Origin: Vermamoeba vermiformis
Taxonomy: Eukaryota
DNA: 64,000 nucleotides
Assembly: GCA_045837725.1 (NCBI GenBank)
Contig: JBEWZL010000243.1
Location: forward strand, 124,001-188,000
Direction: 5' to 3'
Both the position numbers and the translations under genes were made by a program. The number at the start of each line of letters is the position of its first letter. Within the stretch, counting starts at the first letter, position 1. This document shows positions 3,921-42,252 of the stretch, one piece after another. Under the pieces are notes generated by a model, which did no database searches, was not told the origin of the DNA, and saw only the letters and a program-made list of their open reading frames with translations.

Positions 3921-4967
3921 TTGGACAGAAACGCTTCCAATAGCAACAAACAAGGAAGAAATTCAGTATTTGGCTGTAAAAAAGAGGTTGATCTGGGAGT
4001 AAAAACAATTACATTTTCAAATGCTGTGGCAGCCAGGCCGACAATGAATGCACATCTAGTAGAAGCTATTAAGCGCAGTAAAATATTGACAGGCTTAATA
4101 GTCCATTTCAAAACAATGAACAACCATTTCGAATATTGGGATCAGATCGTGGATGCAGTCTTAGAGAACAGATCTATTCAAGCATTAACATTCAATAACG
4201 TTGTATTTTCAATGCATTGGAAGCCAATCAAAAGCCTCTGCAAAATATTAGAAGGAATGCAAGATCTGCATGACACTTTGACACGTGTCAACCCGAACAG
4301 GCCCGTCCGTCTTGCCTTACGGAAAATATCCATCAACGGAGGTAGATTCGCAACAAAATTCTTAGAGGAGTTAGTACAGACATTACGGCATAACAAAGTA
4401 ATCACACAATTGGAAATAAATTACTTGAAGGAACATCGGCCAATATTTGGTGAACAGGCACAAGTGACAGTAGTACTTAGAGAGCTCCGAAATAACGATA
4501 CATTGACTAAAATAGAAATGACTCGCGGAGTTTTGAAGGAAGAATCAGGATTGGTCGAATTTATAAAGGAAAACAGATCCGTCAAAAAATTGATTTTTTG
4601 CGCTTGTTCGTTTAGCGATAGTTATTGGAAATTAATAGAACAAGCAGCAGAAGAAAATAGAGTAATATCCGAATTGATCTTTACACCTGATATTGAAGCT
4701 ATCAGTGCTGCGGATGTCGATCTGCCTCAGACGACCATTCCAAAATCTCTCGAGAAAGTATTAAAACAGAATAAAGATGCAAGAGATAGTGCTAAGAATA
4801 ATATGAAGATATTAGTACGAATGATAGCAATCAGGCCTCGAGCATACCTTGACATTTTTCCTCCGGAGATCTGGCTGGAGATTTTGAAGTACATTCAGCT
4901 CCCTGGCGTCAAAAAATCATTCAATTACAAACTGATCAATGAATTCAATAATGTTATTACGAAGTGA
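3921..4967 (+). CDS. RNI-like leucine-rich-repeat protein with C-terminal F-box-like motif
   Basis: Repeated LxxNxxIxxLxL units (ENRSIQALTF, HNKVITQLEI, NNDTLTKIEM, ENRSVKKLIF, ENRVISELIF) and C-terminal LDIFPPEIWLEILKYI. The true start is uncertain. Confidence 0.7.
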   Translation: MDRNASNSNKQGRNSVFGCKKEVDLGVKTITFSNAVAARPTMNAHLVEAIKRSKILTGLIVHFKTMNNHFEYWDQIVDAVLENRSIQALTFNNVVFSMHWKPIKSLCKILEGMQDLHDTLTRVNPNRPVRLALRKISINGGRFATKFLEELVQTLRHNKVITQLEINYLKEHRPIFGEQAQVTVVLRELRNNDTLTKIEMTRGVLKEESGLVEFIKENRSVKKLIFCACSFSDSYWKLIEQAAEENRVISELIFTPDIEAISAADVDLPQTTIPKSLEKVLKQNKDARDSAKNNMKILVRMIAIRPRAYLDIFPPEIWLEILKYIQLPGVKKSFNYKLINEFNNVITK

Positions 4968-5841: not shown

Positions 5842-8246
5842 TTAGAACTGACCATCGAATCCGATGAATCCGGTCAACAAAAATATATGGAAATATGATT
5901 TCTTTTCTACTAACGAGCACCAGTTCCAAGCAGACGTTAAGCGACCGTCAATGCACGAGCCTGCATCGAAAAAGTTGTCGGCGCCAGATCCGTCGAAGGC
6001 GTGTCTGAAAAAGTCTGCTAAAATAGTCTTGCGCAGCTTATCAACGCCCCCATATTGTTCTACAACAGGCACGATCTTAGGATTATCCATCAAGCTCGGA
6101 ATTTTGTCCAAGCAAGACACGATCGGATTCAAGATGCGCGGGACTTGGTTGTACTTGTCAATGAACATCAATGCATTAGGCACGTTGTGATCGCCCAAGT
6201 GAATAACACTGCTGCCGACCCAGTGCTCGACTTTCTCTTGCACTTGACGCAAGATCCTGTGCATGACCTTGCCGACACGAGGAGCGTCTTGAACACGATT
6301 CAAGCCCTAGTAATGTCATAATTAATACTGTAACATACTATGGAAAAGATACGTAATTGAAATAGCAAGAAGAAATTAGGCTATAATTAGCAAGATTTTT
6401 TTGAGCATTGCGGATCGAGCAGATCCAAGCACGGTAGTGAGTTCGATTAAAATGTTACGATGTCGCGATAATGTTAAACTTACTTGACCCGTGTCCATCA
6501 ATCTATAGTAATTGCTCTCGCCTAACAAATCTTCTTCAGCGAGGTACCACAATTTGAACATTTCGTGACTGATCTCGCGCCACAACATGAGTGATTGCAA
6601 CACGTAGTGATATTGACGCGCGTGATTGTGACTCAAACGTGCACCACCGCGACCAGCTTGGATCGCCAAAGAAAACTTCTCGTCCTCGTCGTCTTCGGCT
6701 GAAAAGTAGTGCTTGAGATAGACGATCACTTTGTCGACGGCGTCACGTGATGTACGGAGGTACGCGTGATTGTCAGTGATTGAGTAGAGGCACTGTTTGA
6801 TCTCTTCGTCGGTGATTTGGGGCGATTGGTACTTCTTGCACAACGCGTCAATGGCCTTCTCTTTCAACTTGGACTATAGTAACAATTATTAGTATGCATA
6901 GGCCTGAGCTACTCGAAAGTGACCACTACACGTGGCTAAAAAATCAAAATTTCCGTTCAAATGAACATTATTTTTCAAATAAATATCTGCAAAATAGTGA
7001 TAATAGTAGTGTTGCTACATACCTCTTTGCTGACTTCATGACGGCTCTTTCCTTCAGACAAGATCTCGCGAGTAGCAAGAGCCATGAGCGGATCAGTCAA
7101 CAAATCTTCAGCATCGCGATCAGCGAGGTACGAGTGCACTGTAGTCATAGGCTTGACGACTTTAAAGTTCAACAACTCTTGCACGTGTGGCAGCATCGAG
7201 TCTTGAAGCATGTAGATCAACTTGCCGTACTCGCTGCGCATTTTTTCAGGGTTCATAACCTTGTAACGACGTCCAATTTCTATATAATAATATTAGTATT
7301 AATTTATCTAAGCCAGAAGAAAATTTTTGAATTCATCATTCGAAAAAAGGCCGGTACAAAATGCTGAAATTTAAGGATTTTAATAACATTAGTATATTTA
7401 ATTGATGTATATTGATGCGTACCAAATACTTTTTGGAAGAAAGCTTCGTTATCAACAAAGTTTTTGTCCTTGATCATGACCTGTCCTTGGTTGTAATCAG
7501 CGGCAATCACCAAACCGCTCAAAATAGCGCAAATTTCTCTCAATTGAGCAGCCATACGTTTAGCCTATAATAATATAAATAAGATCGATCTCTTTAATGA
7601 ATTATAGTTCGGATCTTACCTTGCTTCCCCACGTAATAATGTCTACTTTGTCGGTGTATTCAGAGACGTGCATAGCTGCTTGCAACAGTCTCAACCACTT
7701 GCGTTCTTCGTAAGTCAAGCGCAGAGGAATATATTGAGCGCGATTAGCGAACCAATCCGGATCCTTCTCCAAAATGGATTCCAACGAGTTTGCAGAGTTA
7801 TTGGACGGTGCGAACTCGCCTTCACCATCGCTATCATCCTCCATATCAGGTTGACCGTTATTGTTGGCGCCCTTTGCTCCTGGAGCTTGTGCAGGTTTCT
7901 GATCGCGTAGCAAATCCGGTCTTACAATGTTCTTAGTGTGGCCCTTTCTATTACCCTTTTTATGCAAGGCTTGGAAGCAGACGTCGCAGTAGTTGTCCTG
8001 GCATTGTACGCACGTTACAGCCCACGGCTGGTCCTCGCATTCAATGCACATCTGGTCCTTCATAAATTGTTCATTTTTCTTTTCTTTTTGTTTTTGAGCT
8101 TCAACATTCTCAACGAATTCTTCTTTCATATCTTCTTGGTTGTCCAATACTGCATCTAAAATGCTCTTTGCGTGCTCGCGTTGAGCACGAGTTCGCGGGC
8201 TAAGTTCGCCATCGCGATCGTCAATTGACATCCGGTCCTGTTCCAT
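5842..8246 (-). CDS. UPF0652/DUF2009 family protein with N-terminal B-box zinc finger
   Basis: CIECEDQ..CVQCQDNYCDVCF..LHKKGNRKGH B-box; YIPLRLT..ERK.LRLL.AAM.VSEYTDKVD; MNPEKMRSEYGKLIYMLQD; RHAFDGSGADNFFDAGSCIDGRLTSAWNWCS. Confidence 0.88.
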
Positions 8247-8792
8247 TGTAAAGTGGCTCTAAATAGTATAAAAATAATTAATATTTGGGTGATAGGGGTT
8301 TTAATAATAATTGAAAAGAGAAGTTATATTTGCAAAGAGGAAATTTGACCGTTAAGAATTCAAAAAATAGAAAAAATACAAGTAGTCCACAAAATATTAT
8401 GGGCACTATATCGGTAAGTATTAAAAATAATATTAAATAATTTTTGATTTCGGTTAGTCTTTTAAAAATTAGGAAAAAATCACGATCTAAATTTACAAGT
8501 CAAGACATTTACCTATGCAAAATGGTAACGTACTTTTGTACTTTATATGGCCTATTGTGAAGAAGATTTGTGGTAGTTACACCAAACAAATCACTGTTTG
8601 TAACTTGAGAAATTTAAAAAATATTACGTGGATCCCTGGTTGACTGACGAAAAATTTCAACCTACAAATTACCCCCTATCTTACCGTATAGATTAGTGAG
8701 ATTTGTGTGGGTTAATTCTGTGCGGAATTCTTGCTGATCCGAGATCTCAACAATAAATTAAGTATTTATTACAAGGGTGCACTACAGCTCGA

Positions 8793-13255: not shown

Positions 13256-14411
13256 ATGGTCAAGGGACGAAGAAGAGCTAAGAATCAGGATCGCTTCAAC
13301 ACGTACATCTACAAAGTCCTGAAGCAGGTTCATCCTGATACTGGCATATCCAATCAAGCCATGGTAGTCATGGACAACTACGTCCAGTTCACTTTGCGTC
13401 GTATTGCCGAACAAGCACAGATCTTGGTTGATCTCGAGAAAGCAAGGACGTACGTGCTTAGTTAAATATTTTGTGGTCGCTAATAGCTTTTTAGTCTCGA
13501 TAGCCGTGACATTCAAACTGCTGTTCGTTTGGAATTGCCAGGCGAGCTTGCAAAGCATGGTAAGCCCCATAATAGTTAGTTTAAATAATAATTATTAATG
13601 GGCGTTCAGCGGTCTCTGAGGGCACCAAGGCAGTCGTTAAATTCACCTCGTCTCGTGGTACTAAAGGCTCGCAGTCCTTCAAGGCTGGTTTACAGTTCCC
13701 CGTGTCACGTGTCAAAAAGCTGCTCAAGTTCTGTAAGCACCATACTTAAACTCACGCCTCGTTCATTTTACTAATTACTCTGTTTGGTAGACACTAATGC
13801 ACCGCGCATTGGCAATACTGCTGCCGTCTACTTGGCTGCAGTGTGCGAGTACATGGCTGCTGAAGTCTTGGAGCTTGCAGGCAACGCCTCAAGGGGTACG
13901 TCACTATTTCAAATTCTGTTGCTAAATTTCACTAATGCGCACGTAGATCTGAAGCTGAGAAGAATTATCCCTCGTCACATCCAATTGGCAGTCCGTGGAG
14001 ACGAAGAACTCGATCGCTACTTGAAGGACGTTACTATCCGCGGAGGAGGAGTCATCCCGCACATTAACAAGGCCCTTATTACTGGTAAATTCTCGAACAG
14101 CACTCCTGCAACGACAACGAGCTTCGGTGCCTTTGGGGGTGGATTCGGCAGTACTGCTCCGACCCTTTGGAGGTTTCGGTACTATGACACCTGCACCCTC
14201 AACGGACTTTGGAAATGCTTTTGGAGCTCCAACGGCCTTTGGTACCACGGAATGCGGCTCCAGCATTCACTTTCGGGGGGCGCTACTGCCTTCAATCCCA
14301 ACGCAACCAATTTCACTTTTGGTGCTCCTTCTACTAACCCAATCCCTGGATTTGGTGCGCTGAAAATCAAGGATGAGGAAGATGGAGGATGACGAGGCCG
14401 ACGATGAGTAA
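13256..14411 (+). CDS. Fused histone H2B-H2A doublet with FG-rich and acidic C-terminal tail
   Basis: Exons 13256-13449, 13495-13559, 13610-13732, 13791-13895 and 13947 onward, all GT-AG and phase-consistent. H2B ([49 protein letters not shown]) runs without a stop into H2A ([57 protein letters not shown]). As assembled the frame ends at 14392; the frame-corrected tail ends at TAA 14409-14411. Confidence 0.92.
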
Positions 14412-14735
14412 AGTCGTGGTGGTACATCTGAATCTGGATCGGAAAGTAAGAGCCTGTGTGTCGAGTAATATTGGTGCACGACTCTTTGTAATAAATAGCG
14501 TTTATGACGTACGTATGTTCTAACTGCTTAAACTCTCAGAGTTGATTTCCTTATTTAGATTCAATGTTCGTGACGTATCGCGACTAGAACCAAAAAGGAA
14601 GTGAAGCTGGATTTTTAGGTAATGCACTGTAAAACGACGTCGCGATAGGCACACGATAAATTTGACCCTTAGGCCGGCTCACAACAGTATTCAGCTAAGA
14701 ATAACAATTAAGGATCATCCACGCACGATCTGATA

Positions 14736-17406
14736 ATGGAGCTCGACGTACCGCCCGTGCAGCTTCAATGGAACGACATACGATATTCAGTCAAGAAAGC
14801 CAAAAAAGGATGCAAAAAAGGAGAAGCTAAGACGATCAACATTTTGCATGGATTGACTGGAGTTATTGAGCCGGGAAATACCTTAGCTATCATGGGACCT
14901 AGCGGTAAGAAAATATATTTTATTATGTGCCATTAGGTTTTAATGCTAATTGAGAGGTTACTAAGAGCAAAATTAATTTCAAAAATAAATCCGATCTCTC
15001 AACAATCCTTAGCAGTAAGCTGATTCTTTTCATACTATAGGTTCAGGAAAAACTACATTAATGAATATTTTTGCTTGCCGTATTCCTAAAAAGGCCGAGG
15101 GAGAAGTGTTAGTAAACGGTATTAAAGCTGATCTACAAATCATGTACGTCGACAATGCATTTAATTGATAATATCGTCATTTCTAATTATTTCACGCAAT
15201 AAAGGCGCCGAATTGCAGGCTACGTACCGCAAGAAGACATTTTGACTGGATCACAAACTGTTCGAGAAGCCTTAATGTTCTACGCGCAACTCAAGCTACC
15301 CACAACGGTCACGAACAAAGAAAAAGAAGAACGAGTACGTCATTAGCCTTTATTATGATGGCTTAATAAGCTCACATTGCTGTCTTAACAGGTCGATAAA
15401 ATTATTGAAGAACTTGGCTTGAAGAAAGTAGCAAAGAGCTTCATCGGATATGTAGGAGAAGGCAAGTACTAAGACCTTAACTAAAGTATTGAGAATCGCA
15501 TATCCGTAACTTCGTAACAAGGTTGTTACGCGACGGAAGAAATTTGACAGCCAAATTTCAAAATTTTGCCACTCAAATCCAAGGCCGCGTACTGACCTAA
15601 TATTTCCATAGATGCATTGAATAGTGGTCTACGAAGAGGTTTGAGTGGTGGCGAGCGCAAGAGACTTAGCATTGGATTGCAATTAGTAAGCAACCCTTCG
15701 CTGCTGTTCCTCGATGAACCAACCACTGGCTTGGACTCATTCACCGCTCAAAGTATTGTACAAACACTATCGAACTTGGCTAAACAAGGCAGAACCGTAA
15801 TGTAAGTGAACGAACTTTTTACGGATCCGAGTTTAACTCCGCTGCTTTTAGCTTTACTATTCATCAGCCCTCAACAGAAGTGATGCAATTATTCGATCAA
15901 TTGATGATTATTGGTGCGGGCAAAACCATGTACTACGGACCTGGACCTAAAGTCGTTGACTACTTCAAATCCGTTGGTTACACTTGCCCAAAGTTCGAGA
16001 ACCCTGGCGACTATATCAGTAAGCAATACTATATTATTATGTACGACTTTTTTTATTAACTAATATGTAGTGGAGAGTGTTGTCGTTGGTAAAGGCGAAG
16101 AATTTGACGGGCTGACTAAAACGAAGGACAGCGAGGCTGTTGATGGCGACGGCAAGAAAAAGAAAAAGAAGAAGCCTACAGACGGAATTGACTTCTCGAA
16201 AGCTAGCGAACAAGCGGACAAATTGGCTGCTCTGTACAACGAGTCCGAATACGTCAAAGTAAGATCTGATCCGCTCTCTTGTTGAAGCAACAACTAACTC
16301 TTAATTATAGTATACTCAAAAAGCTGGTGATGTGCCTGTTAAGATTGACACTGGCAAGCGAAAAGACCGACCAGGCATCGGACTGCAAATGAAGATGTTG
16401 TTAGAACGGGCGTACAAGAACGTGTTCAGAGAACCCAATTTGTTGAAAGCTGGTCTCATTCAAAACACTATCGTCGGAGTATTAATCGGACTTATTTATT
16501 TGCAACTGACTTACACACAACGAGGTACGTTATTTAATAATATTTCCTAATTAGGAAAGTGCATTAACATGGAATTTTCCTTTTTTAGGCATTCAAGATC
16601 GATTGGGCAGTATCTTCTTTGCAGCCACTTTTATGATGTTTGCGGGTATTTTAGGCCCGTTCTATTTATTCCCGACTGAACGCAAGATATTTTTGTTCCA
16701 ACACGTGGACGGCCTTTATTCAACACTCACGTACTACGTGTCCAAGTTAATGGCTGAAATTCCGAGCTTTTTAATCGCAAACATCATCTTCGGCACGATA
16801 TTCTATTGGATGGCGAATTTGAAGCCGGATGTAAGTGGTGGATGTCAAAAGTGTTTTTGACACGTACTTACGATTGTTTCCTTATTAGGCAGGAGCGTTC
16901 TTCTTGTTCATTTGCATTAATTTCTTAATCACCAACACTGCCTTTGCATTCGGTGTCGGTATCATTGGTCTGTTCCCGAACCCAGCCGTCGCCCTCAATA
17001 TCTTCCCCTTGTTCTTCATTCCTCAAATGGTAATCACATCGAATCATTCATATACTAGTACTAGTACTGACCTCGTTATCAGATCTTCTCTGGCTTCTAT
17101 ATCTCAGCCAATACAGTGCCGCCATGGTTCGTGTGGATCGAGTACATCACGTTCTTGAAGTATGCATTCGCTGCCCTCGCGCAGAATGAGATGGAAGGTG
17201 CCTCGTTCTACTGCACCGACGAAGAGCTGAAAGATCGTGGAGGTGTATGCGTATTGACTACTGGTGAAGCTGTGTTGGATTTCTTCGGTTTGGATCAACT
17301 GCCGATCTACGCGAACATTTTGGTTTTGATTGGTTTCATGTTATTCTTCCACACTCTCGCGGTCATATTGCTTGCTGTATCTGCTAGAAAGCAGAAGCAG
17401 GTGTAA
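14736..17406 (+). CDS. ABCG-family (White-like) half transporter
   Basis: Walker A GPSGSGKTT, signature [12 protein letters not shown], Walker [18 protein letters not shown], and a C-terminal TM domain (NBD-TMD order). Confidence 0.95.
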
Positions 17407-36406: not shown

Positions 36407-39400
36407 CTAAATGTTATCGTTCTTGGGTTGGTAGAACGGCGAGTTGAATTGTTTCATTTTGTCACCCTGGTAGATCGGTGAAGTGTTGGATGTGTCAAAG
36501 GTATCGCCCAACTTCTCGAAGAAATCGTCGACTTTAGCGGCACGAGCCTTGCGGGTCAATGCAATGGCTGTGGCGACACCGGCAATGGCAGCACCGGCAG
36601 AGACCGTCAAAGCGATGGTGAGCGTGTTGTCAGGCGAAGTGCTCTCGCTAATCAAGCCCGTGTCACGCGAGTAGTTGATGGTGATGTCGTGGCTGGCATT
36701 CATCGGGCGCTTGAGCTTGTCAGTGTTGCCCAAATCGTCCACGTACACGCTGACAACTGTTGACATTTGACTGTCGGAGGGTTGGAACGTAATGGACTTG
36801 AAGTACAGCTCGTTCAAGAGACTCTGAGGGTCCGAGCAGTTGATTTTGATCGTGTTCTCATCGCTGAGGTCAACGCAAGCGGCGGGCTTGTTGCCGATAG
36901 GCTCGAAGGCACGAGGATAAGTGATGTTGAGGTTACCAGCAGTAGCGGGGATGGACACGGTGAAGTAGATCTCCTTGTTGCGCGCATCAGGGTCACCAAT
37001 GTTGAACTCTCTGAAAGTGAACGAAGGCAAGCTACCATTGCTGGGAGCAGTGATAGTGACACTGTCGTTGGCTTGGATGTAAGGAGGATCGTTGATGGGC
37101 ATGACACGAATGATGGCCTTGACGGGGCGAGCTTCACCACCTTGGTCATCGTGAGCAGTGAATGTCAACGAGGCGTAGTTTCTCTCGTCCCATTGGTCGG
37201 GAGTGGGGATGAAAACAACACGGTAAGAAGCAGGAGCGAGACTAGGAATGGCCATGGGAGTGACCAACTTCTCGCCGTAAGGTTGAGCACATACGCCATC
37301 CTCGGTGGCAGTGGGGCAGACATAGAGCTCAGCGCCAGGGGAGGCAGGGATGGGCACGCTGATGCTCGACACGATAGTCTCCAAAGGCGAGTCAATATCG
37401 GTGACAGTCCATTCGAGGATGAGGGTAGTGTCTTCGTCCATGTCAACACGACCAGGCAAAACGTTGAACTTGGGCACGATGACTGGAGGATCGTTCACAC
37501 CCAAGACGTTGATGTTCACAAAGTAGGGGATCGAGACGGCGTTTTGCTCGTCAGAAACAGTGAAGGTGAAGTTGGCGTAGCGGAGACCGAACTCATCGGG
37601 CAAGGCAATGAACGAGACGAGCAAGTCCTTGTTGACGAGGGTGTAAGGAGTGCTGGTGATCGTGACCTTGTTGCACTGCTTGTAGGAGGTAGTGCACTCC
37701 CAGAGCGTGCCAGTAGAGACTGAACGAGTGATGGTCAAAGTGAAAGGACCTTCGCTGTCAATGTCAACAACTTCAACACCGAAGTTCATCTCAATGGGCG
37801 TGTCTTCGTAAGTGGTGAAGTCCAAGATACCCTTGTAGGTAGGAGGATCGTTGACAGGAGTGACCCAAACGACACCGTCGTACTCAGAGCTGAGACCGCC
37901 AGAGGGATCGGAGACTTGGTATCGGAACACACCCAAAGGCTCAGTGGTGCTAGAAGCGTCAGGGTCAGGGAAGAACCACATGGAACGACCGTTGAAAGGA
38001 ATAACGCTGCCTGCGGTGATGGAGGTGTTTCTAGCGTACTCGAGGAAGAATGAGCCCTTGAGCACAGAGGTGATGGTGATGACCAAGCTTGAAGGCACGT
38101 TATCAACGTCACGAGGGTTGAAAGTGACTTCAATAGGAGTGTCTTCAGGAGTCTCCAAGAGAATGTCTTCAGCGGCAGGAGGATCGTTGACGGGGATGAC
38201 AATGATTTTGACAGTGTATTCAGCGAGTGATTGCGATGAGCTGTCGTTCACACGGAACTTGAAGGAAGTGAATACAGTAGTATCATCACCACTGTTGAGG
38301 CCAGCAGGAGGAGTGTAGAGAATCTCCCACGAGGTGTAGACAGGAGTGAGAACAGAGTTGACGTCCATAGTGAGGCCGCTCGCCATATTAATTAATTCAC
38401 CCTTGTCAACATTTTTCGTGATGGTCAGGGTGAAGGTGCTAGGGTCGCTGTCAACGTCATTAACAACGAATCCATTGATCTTAACGGAGGTGTCTTCGTA
38501 AGTGATGAAAGTCATGTCAACCGAGGTGGGTGGATCGTTGACAGGTGTCACAGTGATCGAGATTGTACCGAGATCATAGAACTGCGAGTCGCTAACTCGG
38601 TAGATGAAGGAGTCAGGACCGTTGTAGTTCAAGTTGGGTCTGTAGGTCACCGTCTTGGCGGGGAGGAAGCTGCCCTTGGACAATTTAGTAGCACCGTTCC
38701 AAAGAGTACCGAATGAGGGCAAAGTCTCAATGGTGACGTTGAGGCTCGAGATAGGGTCCTCGCCGTCCGACAACAATGGAGTCACATTGACGAGCAAATC
38801 AGTGTCTTCAGGAGTAGTCAATGCCTTGTCATCTCCGGTGGGCGGCAAGTTGATCAAAGTGCCATCAGCAACAATGTTGATCGTGACAGTGTAATTCGTC
38901 ACAGAGTCCAAACCGTCATTCACTTTGAAAAGGAAGGTAGTGAACGGGATACCGTTTTGGTTAATAGGCGGCAAGTAGGTAAAGTTGTGTGCTGTTGTGA
39001 GACCCACATTGCTAGGAACAGTCGTCAAGTTAGAGTTCAAGTTGGCGAGGAATCCCTTAACAGGCAAGGATTGCACGATCACGCTGATGGGATTGCCGTC
39101 CAGCGAAGTGCCGCCGAGTCTGAAGTAGATGGGCAAGTTCATTTTGGTAGTGAACTCAACGTTGGTGGAGGTAGGAGGATCAGGCACAGGTGTCACATTG
39201 ACTGTCACGGTCGAGGCTGCGACTGCTCTAGCGTTACTGGGATCCACTGCCATGTAAGTGAAGGTGACCTTTCCGTTGAAGTTGGCAGCAGGCACGAAAG
39301 TGACGGTCTGACCGGAGAGAGTAGCACCAGCAGTCACGGTCGTAGCGCCGTCCTTGAGAGTACCAGAGGTAGGCAAAGTTTGAATGTAAATTCTAAGAGT

Positions 39401-42252
39401 GCTAGGGCTATCATCGATGTCAAAGACGTGGGTGGAGAAGTCGAGCAGAATGCTGGTGTCTTCTTTCGTTGTGTTCTCAAAGTTCTCATTGGTGGGAGGA
39501 TCGTTGACTGGCAACACATTAAATGTGATGTAACCAATGTTTGAGTTGACACAGCCGTCGTTGGCTTGGTAAGTCATTGACAGCTGACCATTCCAGTTTG
39601 GAACCGTTGTTCTGATGGTGAACTGCAACGAGCTTTGATCGTAAGTGGTGCTGGTTGAAGTCACAGGCGAGTCTTGGAAAGTCAAAGCAGCGTTCGAGCC
39701 AGGCAAAGAGAGCAGCTGCACGGTCAAGGCGTTGTTCTCGGGATCAGAGACTCTGCCGTACAAGTCGAAGTCCAAAGATTCGTCTTCGTTGAACGAGTAA
39801 GTCAAGTTCAAGGCACGAGGAGGATTGTTCAAGTTGACTGCCACACCAAATGAACGGTAGCCCCAAGCAATCATGTTGACAGTGAAGATTTCAATCACAC
39901 CAAAGTCATTGACGGGGTAAGTACCAGGGTAAGTCAAAGGAGCCGTGCGTGTGGTCCATGTGCCAAGAGGTGGGTTGTAGACAACGGCAGGCATGTCTGA
40001 GCGCACCCAGTAGAGTTCGTTCCACGAAGGAGTGCTGGTGTAGAACGGATCGAATTGCACGCGCACAGTGTAGTTGCTCAACACATCGACAGCCAGCTGG
40101 GGCCAGTTGGAATACGTATCGGTCAAGGCACCGCTGTAGCCGATGGGCAAGTTGTTGATAAAGTTTTGGTAGATGTTGTACGTGGTAGTGTTGACGTTCG
40201 AGAAGAACACAGGGACGTTGTTCCAGCCAGCCATGTCAGCCATCAAACGAGCAGTGTAGTTGAACATCGGGCGGCTGGTCAACACGACGACAACACCGAA
40301 GCAAGCAGTTCGTCTCCAACCAATAGTGCTGTTGCCAGCAAAATATCTATAGGCCTCAACGACTCTGCTAGTGGGGCCCGGGACGAGGTTGTTAGGACCT
40401 GTGAAAGAGTTGGCAACAGAGTTGATGGAGGCCAGATTGTTCGTCAAGAACAGGTGCGGGTTGACACCAAGAGAAGTGCCGTTGGTCCAGAATGTACCAA
40501 AGCCTAGTCTAGCGTTCCACAAGTTGGAGATTTGGTTAAAGAAGACTGGCAATTGAGTTCTGAAATGAAGTTAGACACAAGACCTAAGCGGATCTACAGC
40601 GAGTTTGCTTACCTAATGTTATCCAAGGTGGCCGCAGACAAACCGTTCAAGTCAATAGCAACGAAGACGTCAACGTTGGGCTTGGTGGGGACCCAGACAT
40701 CAAAGTTCAAGGGCAATTTGGAGTTGACGACAGTGCTGACAAGTACCGAGTAAGTGTTGGGGTAGACGATGGAAGTGTTAGCCTTAGTAGCAGGAGTTTG
40801 ACCAATGATGACGTTGTTATTGGTCACGTTACACTTGCTAAGTGTTTGTTGACAGTCTAATACAACGAGTTAGGACCCGAAGTCAAAGACGGATGTGGAT
40901 GTGGATGCACTTACTACTAACGTTGGGGCCGGCCAAGAGGATACCACGATCACAAGGAACGTAGACGCATCGACTATTAGACGGAAGGTACTTGATTGGA
41001 ACGACGGTGCAGTCAGTGCCATTTTGGTACAGACCACGACCGTTGGATGTGGTCATGCAGATGTTTTGTCCAGTATATCGATCCCAGTTGAAGTTCTTAG
41101 TGTTGGTAATGACCAAGCGAGTGGATTCAGATTCGTCAGCGATTGACCATCCAGCAGGAATGCTAATGTATCCAAGGCAACCTGAGATCAAAGATTATTC
41201 CACTACTCTAAGAAAGAATATTGCTCGCGCCTTACCTTGGAAGTTAGAAGTACCCAGAAGACCGTAGCTGCGGCAGTTGTAGTTTCTAGTCTTGACGACT
41301 CTACCCGTCAAGCACGTATCCACAACTTCACCATTGTACACAGGAATATTCAGTGCCGTCCCATCCACCCTCAACAGTGGCATAGAAAAGGACTGGAGAA
41401 ATATAATGTCATTAGTTGAGCTTTAGAGAACAAGAGGGCGGAGATCTTACCGTCGTTATAATCTTGATCGCCCATACCAGTAAAATCTTCGAAACCGACG
41501 ATGATCTTGCCATCGATGGAGACAATGGACGTGTGTCTGAAACCATCCAAGTTTACCAAGTTGGTGCTGTTAATGGACCACCAGATGGTGTTGTTCAGAC
41601 GGTAGGTGGAGGCGTCTTGATAACCATCCTGACGCATGAAAAAGCCGATACGAGTGTTCGCAGGGAAGGGGCCAATTCTAGTGGTCAAACCAGCAGTCAT
41701 ACAACCCCTAGGAGTAACGTTGATGCCGCTTCTAGTTACATCCGGCCAGATTAAGGGAAGACCAGGAGGGGTCTAGAAATTATTAGCCAATGACTAAAAT
41801 AATGTAATTTAATACATACGTCTAAGTTTTGAGTACCCTCGTTAAAAATAAAATAACCCAGTTGGTTTCTGAAATTGGATGTTTGGGTAATGAACGTTAT
41901 GGAAATGTTCGCGTCCTGTGTAGCGCAAAGTTAGTCCGATGTCTCAACGCTAGGTGATGTATGACAGCTTACAGTGGTTAACTTGATGGAAGTTGGCGTT
42001 TGCAAAGACACCAAAGACGGATGAGGAGTGCTGCCCTCGCGGAATAAAATGGGAATAGAGTTCGAAATATTCGTTGGAATAGTGACGAAATATGAGCTCG
42101 CTAGAGTCACAGGTTGCGCTGGATGAATTAAAGTTAGTTTCACGTTAATAAATTACGAGGTAATTACAATTTGTGGGGCAAGTCCAAGTGACTTGTCCGT
42201 TAGTGCCTAAGACCAACAAGGCTACGACTAGGTAGTAAACGAACAGCTTCAT
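36407..42252 (-). CDS. Sib-like (similar to integrin beta) cell-surface adhesion receptor
   Basis: Signal peptide MKLFVYYLVVALLVLGTNG (ATG 42252); DUF4114-like IGFF..VGFEDF..GDQDYND; Cys-rich segment; vWA-like region (DVFVAIDL..LGFGTF..VVVVLT); nine ND/NNPP-initiated cadherin-like/VCBS repeats; one TM; short tail with SPIY and SPFY. Confidence 0.88.

Follow-up and report, generated by a model that had tools for sequence, protein, structure and literature searches.

The 64-kb window, i.e., the whole stretch of DNA that was analyzed, contains on its forward strand a histone fusion gene of five exons. The gene encodes a complete H2B fold, a linker of nine residues (RGTKGSQSF), and a complete H2A fold. 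As assembled, it extends from the ATG at 13256 to 14392, and its spliced open reading frame (ORF) comprises 310 residues. A gene with a ZZ zinc finger lies upstream and a gene for an ABCG half-transporter downstream; both are on the forward strand and intron-rich. The transporter gene (14736-17406) follows directly and has about 10 short introns. No other histone genes were found within the 64-kb window, and a tRNA scan of the window yielded 0 matches. On the reverse strand, an intron-split gene at 5842-8258 encodes an ANCHR-like B-box zinc finger together with a DUF2009 non-canonical E2 ubiquitin-conjugating domain. Also on the reverse strand, positions 36407-40570 are occupied by a single uninterrupted ORF of 1387 residues with bacterial cadherin-like, Big_9, and SibA-like Ig domains. 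The GC content of this ORF is 0.51, its GC3 value is 0.64, and its GC skew is strongly positive, in a window with a GC content of 41%; it could encode a large adhesin of bacterial ancestry.

The features of the fusion gene are the following:

13256..13449, + strand: exon 1, with the start codon, an N-tail that is basic and very short, and the beginning of the H2B fold, from alpha1 into alpha2
13450..13494, + strand: intron 1, 45 nt, GTACGT..TAG, CTAAT at 13480
13495..13559, + strand: exon 2, which continues the H2B fold into its later portion; the spliced H2B part aligns without gaps across this exon
13560..13609, + strand: intron 2, 50 nt, GTAAGC..CAG
13610..13732, + strand: exon 3, the fusion junction, with the C-terminal end of H2B, the linker, and the N-terminal region of H2A
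13733..13790, + strand: intron 3, 58 nt, GTAAGC..TAG, CTAAT at 13771
13791..13895, + strand: exon 4, with the middle of the H2A fold; matched in the PDB by H2A.Z and by canonical H2A
13896..13946, + strand: intron 4, 51 nt, GTACGT..TAG, CTAAT at 13932
13947..14080, + strand: exon 5, first part, with the end of the H2A fold and an H2A.Z-like docking domain
14081..14392, + strand: exon 5, tail as assembled, with five in-frame FG dipeptides, a stretch that is out of frame between about 14162 and 14279, and the end DEEDGG
14490..14495, + strand: putative polyadenylation signal AATAAA, about 100 nt past the stop codon

Exon structure and histone folds

The four introns (45, 50, 58, and 51 nt) are all bounded by GT and AG. 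Their donors read GTACGT or GTAAGC, all eight splice sites are canonical, and branch-like CTAAT or TTAAT motifs are located 10-20 nt upstream of the acceptors. Splicing is required: a transcript that kept intron 1 would run into an in-frame TAA at 13465. The exon peptides were compared with Pfam, and three of the five had a match, with none on the two shortest. The exon 1 peptide matched the Histone family (PF00125, E 4.3e-08) and the exon 5 peptide Histone_H2A_C (PF16211, E 1e-09), while PF00125 was found with exon 4 at 19 bits, which is under the curated cut-off of 26.4 bits. In the PDB, 177 H2B-type sequences matched exon 1 at E <= 0.01, and the top single-stretch match was a eukaryotic H2B (9lrv_D, E 5.6e-14). 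All 97 residues of the spliced H2B part could be aligned with ordinary H2B without gaps (58-63% identity), and so could all 100 residues of the spliced H2A part with ordinary H2A (60-62% identity). Because both alignments of the spliced product are gapless, all four splice junctions are backed by homology.

The join between the two histones is located in the interior of exon 3. In a single frame, this exon runs from the end of H2B through the linker (13654-13680) into the start of H2A, which begins with KAGLQFPV at 13681, and it contains neither a stop codon nor a methionine codon. The first-pass annotation had placed the H2B end, RGTKGSQSF, and the H2A start at 13610-13732, and translation reproduced this arrangement exactly. 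It had also claimed that the fusion does not depend on the choice of splice sites, which holds because the join is within the exon and no stop or Met separates the folds. As H2B lacks a stop of its own and the start of H2A lacks a Met, neither half can be made alone, and mis-annotated splicing is no explanation for the fusion.

Both N-terminal tails are reduced. Only 16 residues precede the YIYKV motif, compared with about 35-40 in ordinary H2B ORFs, in agreement with the very short H2B tail noted initially; the Lys-rich tail of about 30 residues is absent, and the N-tail of H2A has been cut down to the linker. The histone core comprises 210 residues with a net charge of +16 and a pI of 10.1. 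Its central H2B helix has diverged, and the residues of the H2A acidic patch and of the docking domain have been retained. The 621 nt that encode the two folds are free of stops and frame changes. The H2B-H2A fusion is thus real in the DNA, and the gene is of the eukaryotic type.

The type of the H2A half could be addressed with three exons. Over the same 48 residues, the docking-domain exon scored 53.6-55 bits with human-type H2A.Z chains versus 42-48.6 bits with canonical H2A. Exon 4 gave 34-37 bits with H2A.Z and canonical H2A alike and did not discriminate between them, and neither did the junction exon. Loop 1 of H2A.Z, the stretch from FPV to AAVY, is one residue longer than that of canonical H2A. 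In the gapless alignments of the fusion protein, this stretch has the canonical length. With one discriminating exon and a canonical FPV-AAVY length, we call the H2A half H2A.Z-like, an assignment that stops short of membership in the H2A.Z family.

A C-terminal tail with FG sites in several frames

Downstream of the docking domain, the sequence from 14081 to 14413 contains 11 FG sites (TTYGG), two of which are part of FTFG. In 2000 shuffled sequences, the mean number was 0.64 and the maximum was 4. The sites are distributed over all three frames, with five in the assembled frame, five in the +1 frame, and one in the +2 frame. The reading that follows the FG sites passes through three segments outside the assembled frame:

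14163..14249, + strand: tail segment with the FG reading in the +1 frame, five FG
14251..14277, + strand: tail segment with the FG reading in the +2 frame, one FTFG; ends in a run of six G
14385..14411, + strand: alternative acidic end in the +1 frame, TAA at 14409-14411; one base near 14384 has to be discounted

This path requires four frame changes, all of them +1, close to 14162, close to 14250, within the G6 run (14274-14279), and close to 14384. It starts in the assembled frame, switches to +1 and then to +2, rejoins the assembled frame in the G6 run, and finally moves to +1 again. The G6 run at one of these frame changes is one of only two G/C runs of at least six nucleotides in the 64-kb window. 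The first three changes add up to one codon, and therefore the assembled ORF remains open, closing only 19 nt ahead of the alternative stop. The assembled tail combines the five FG of its own frame with an out-of-frame stretch of about 37 residues rich in Trp, Tyr, and Cys, and it terminates with DEEDGG and a TGA at 14390-14392. Read frame by frame, the tail is rich in Thr, Gly, Ala, Phe, and Pro and has one charged residue ahead of a terminal Lys/acidic block. The earlier description of a tail with about 11 FG dipeptides was therefore right with respect to the two FTFG and to the FG sites, whose number is far above chance, but only five of the sites belong to the assembled frame. Similarly, the acidic C-terminal end is encoded in the +1 frame up to the stop at 14409-14411, but a fourth +1 shift is needed to reach it.

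Two other accounts of the tail were tried and rejected. An additional intron as a repair of the frame was searched for among 24 GT..AG candidates of 40-140 nt, and the number of in-frame FG never exceeded five; none of these candidates combined a donor of the type used in the fusion gene with a CTAAT branch motif. An origin from a tandem DNA repeat was not supported either, as 0 arrays were found. Comparison of the tail in its three readings with Pfam at E <= 10 yielded 0 families, and comparison with the ESM Atlas gave no usable match.

All four frame changes fall into the 331 nt of the tail and none into the 621 nt of the folds. With uniform placement, the probability of this distribution is (331/952)^4, or about 0.015, and the confinement of the changes to the tail argues against decay of the whole gene. 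Whether the changes are local sequence errors or a real degradation of a dispensable tail is a matter of about even odds. The FG tail itself is real as a sequence relic and is in frame only in part. The initial ideas that the protein might be tethered to the nuclear pore, enter FG condensates, or carry its own import or chaperone module are weakened by the discontinuity of the tail and the lack of a Pfam match, and they are speculation.

Gene context and alternative explanations

The fusion gene has the appearance of a resident of the host genome. Its GC3 value of 0.55 falls within the range of the neighboring ORFs (0.37-0.64). Its four introns, its codon usage, and its intron-rich neighbors together argue for a host gene and leave a viral origin unsupported. 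The proposal of an obligate H2B-H2A gene of the host nuclear type was thus upheld by the spliceosomal introns, the GC3 in the host range, and the flanking genes. A histone 3' stem-loop was not found, and there were 0 Rfam matches in the whole 64-kb window. The introns, the AATAAA, the lack of a stem-loop, and the position outside a histone cluster would fit a replication-independent host variant gene.

The ABCG gene served as a splice control. With the pattern GT[AG]..[CT]AG, it could be spliced into a single ORF of 625-626 residues without any frame correction, with uncertain junctions in the region 15119-15624; stricter donor patterns were unsuccessful, and the solution with the fewest introns skipped exons. 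Several of its introns are 50-64 nt long and have GTAAG or GTACG donors, and the range for the whole model is 44-136 nt. The long uninterrupted ORFs of the window amount to about 14 kb in total, and one of them has a length of 4164 nt. Together with the uncorrected ABCG gene, these ORFs argue that the assembly is not generally ridden with indels.

Natural relatives were searched for by scanning prokaryotic genome contigs with the 64-residue exon 1 peptide. The scan yielded 44 loci with 25 distinct H2B ORFs, and one of the 25 was a doublet. The loci, in genomes labeled bacterial or archaeal, encode H2B of the eukaryotic type, most of them with an adjoining H2A and several in tandem cluster repeats, and they look like eukaryotic contamination of metagenome-assembled genomes (MAGs). 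The doublet (locus L043) is an uninterrupted H2B-H2A ORF of 274 residues at 3950-4774 of JAIXQT010000076.1, a 35.8-kb contig with a Proteobacteria MAG label. It is surrounded by dense intronless ORFs, namely a ResIII helicase, an AAA ATPase, a pyruvyl transferase, and two ORFs without a Pfam family, and the contig is probably a giant-virus-like one that has been mis-binned into a bacterial MAG. The doublet is close to eukaryotic histones, its top PDB match being an engineered yeast-type single chain (E 2.5e-74). Its prediction by AlphaFold2 without an alignment had a mean pLDDT of 35.6 and was unusable. The junction exon of the fusion gene matched only short unnamed or H2A-like clusters in the ESM Atlas (best value 0.93).

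Four alternatives to a functional nucleosomal host gene were weighed. The fusion could be real but non-functional, a decaying pseudogene derived from neighboring or retro-duplicated histone genes. The four frame changes inside the 331-nt tail are in line with this view, as are the divergence of the central H2B helix, an identity to ordinary histones of only about 60%, and the isolated position as the sole histone gene of the window, with no partner histone gene close by. Against it stand 621 nt of histone-fold sequence without a stop or frame change, canonical sequences at eight of eight splice sites, gapless H2B and H2A alignments, the confinement of the frame changes to the tail (p about 0.015), and an assembled ORF that closes only 19 nt ahead of the alternative stop. 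We consider a pseudogene unlikely.

The protein might also be functional outside the nucleosome, as a soluble double-histone-fold protein of the Sos or the ABTB2 type that acts, for example, at the nuclear pore. The FG-type composition of the tail would agree with such a role. In contrast, the identity to histones is about 60%, versus 22-30% for the Sos and Cca3S-type examples given in the relevant part of a review, the protein is strongly basic with a net charge of +16, and the C-terminal docking domain of H2A is retained. This explanation appears rather improbable.

Descent from a giant-virus H2B-H2A doublet, by integration or transfer and with a later gain of introns, had been considered possible in the first-pass annotation. 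The order of H2B before H2A and the reduced tails are indeed also found in viral doublets, as described in parts of PMC9145170 and PMC10919886, and the one natural doublet of our scan was found in a virus-like contig. However, exon 3 aligned end-to-end with 17 engineered eukaryotic single-chain H2B-H2A(.Z) constructs (E 2.2e-08 to 8.3e-07, 31.5-36.3 bits), without gaps in the case of the best match, 6k0c_D, and with a gap of one linker residue in four others displayed, whereas the Marseillevirus doublet 7n8n_B reached 18.6 bits (E 0.017). The H2B half is nearer to ordinary H2B (58-63% identity) than to the L043 doublet (52%), and the H2A half is about level (60-62% versus 59%). For Marseillevirus doublets, a passage in PMC9145170 gives an identity of only about 42% with human H2B plus H2A, and four host-type introns, a host-like GC3, and neighbors that are host genes also speak against viral descent. 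With both halves about 60% identical to ordinary eukaryotic histones and the junction exon far from the Marseillevirus doublet, a virus-related origin was not borne out; judged by these comparisons, it is not supported, and we regard it as very unlikely.

Finally, an assembly artifact, with an erroneous join between an H2B and an H2A gene that are in reality separate, can practically be dismissed: the tail points to possible local sequence errors, but the 27-nt linker is in frame within a 123-nt exon that has canonical splice sites on either side, there is no repeat at the join, and the abundance of long uninterrupted ORFs (about 14 kb, one of 4164 nt) and the neighboring 2.7-kb gene that needed no frame correction do not indicate a faulty assembly.

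A putative single-chain histone dimer and its known counterparts

The explanation that we favor, with a probability of about 60%, is that an H2B variant without a tail was fused head to tail with an H2A.Z-like variant in a lineage-specific host gene, yielding a natural single-chain dimer. Judging from the alignments, the two folds would pair intramolecularly in the usual handshake, and the nine-residue linker would provide the same spacing as in laboratory single-chain constructs. In nucleosomes, the fusion protein would most likely take the place of an H2A-H2B dimer and act as a replication-independent variant; the basic core (+16) and the retention of the acidic-patch and docking residues are the basis for proposing a nucleosomal role. 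The fusion would enforce a 1:1 stoichiometry and assign a fixed H2B partner to the H2A.Z-like half. The identity of only about 60% and the diverged central H2B helix count against this explanation, as they could also reflect a relaxed constraint. The C-terminal extension presumably began as an uncharged FG tail rich in Thr, Gly, Ala, Phe, and Pro with an acidic end, and the four +1 changes would then have broken the assembled copy.

A more far-reaching version is that a cellular eukaryote makes and uses a nucleosomal single-chain H2B-H2A.Z-like histone whose origin was independent of the giant-virus doublets, and that a continuous FG array with an acidic end engages transport receptors or the FG meshworks of the pore, or shields the DNA-binding surface of the protein itself. 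We regard this version as improbable; if true, it would provide the first confirmed case of a core histone fusion outside viruses.

In the portions of two reviews that deal with this question (PMC11222145 and PMC9145170; one from 2022, the other from 2024), fused core histones are described as neither observed nor confirmed in eukaryotes. One of the two argues from the absence of fusion for an evolutionary ratchet that, earlier than the last eukaryotic common ancestor, locked the histones as separate proteins. Animal H2B-H2A predictions that were investigated appear to be mis-spliced neighboring genes with start and stop codons of their own, as stated in a section of PMC9145170. Miyake et al. 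2026, as summarized in part of the 2026 review PMC13088155, reported single proteins with an H2B-like and then an H2A-like fold under the name 'HSIH-DHF', with at least 60% identity to histones and from animals only. Our literature search turned up H2B-H2A(.Z) fusions only among viral doublets, among engineered constructs, and in the 'HSIH-DHF' claim for animals; natural H2B-H2A.Z fusions of protists or fungi were not among the results, nor were histones with an FG tail. A lead to a combined H2A/H2B variant in Dictyostelium had no support in the portions of the literature covered. As far as the covered parts of these sources go, the arrangement of H2B and H2A in a single protein has so far been confirmed only in giant viruses and engineered proteins.

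A host gene with the H2B-H2A join inside an exon would demonstrate that a living eukaryote can tolerate re-fusion, and it would offer a natural test case for the costs of fusion, e.g., the loss of tails and of the free exchange of partners, for its gains, e.g., in stoichiometry and in independence from chaperones, and for the effect of an obligate H2B partner on the deposition of H2A.Z. The FG tail, if real, would be an unprecedented appendage of a histone.

Comparison with known systems reveals likenesses and differences in each case. The tail resembles FG nucleoporins in that FG and FTFG sites are embedded in an almost uncharged sequence rich in Thr, Gly, Ala, Pro, Asn, and Ser, but it differs from them in having neither a Pfam match nor a pore-anchoring domain and in having only 5 of 11 FG in the assembled frame. 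Any resemblance to particular nucleoporins is putative. With H2A.Z, the fusion protein shares the best-scoring docking domain as well as the GDEELD and GGGVIPHI motifs, and with H2A.Z genes the presence of introns and a location outside a histone cluster; it differs in the joining to H2B, the canonical length of the FPV-AAVY stretch, and the long non-histone tail.

The 'HSIH-DHF' proteins, as far as they are characterized in that part of PMC13088155, have in common with the fusion an H2B-like fold followed by an H2A-like fold in a single protein and an identity to histones of at least 60%, but they are restricted to animals and stem from database protein predictions, whereas the join of the fusion gene lies inside an exon. 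Marseilleviridae doublets (7n8n_B) likewise are natural single polypeptides in which H2B precedes H2A and the tails are reduced; they lack introns and are far more diverged from eukaryotic histones, whereas the fusion gene resides in an intron-rich, host-type context. The L043 doublet is also intronless and, unlike the fusion gene, has a Lys/Pro-rich linker of about 30 residues and a full H2B N-tail. The engineered H2B-H2A(.Z) chains (6k0c_D, 2jss_A, 4m6b_A, 4nft_A, and 7wlp_A) share with the fusion the order of the histones, the spacing at the junction, and the truncation of both N-tails. However, these chains are laboratory fusions made for structural work, whereas the fusion gene is genomic, has four introns, and encodes a C-terminal extension of about 100 residues. 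By its sequence, it would be the natural counterpart of the laboratory single-chain H2B-H2A.Z dimer, and its product may enter nucleosomes.
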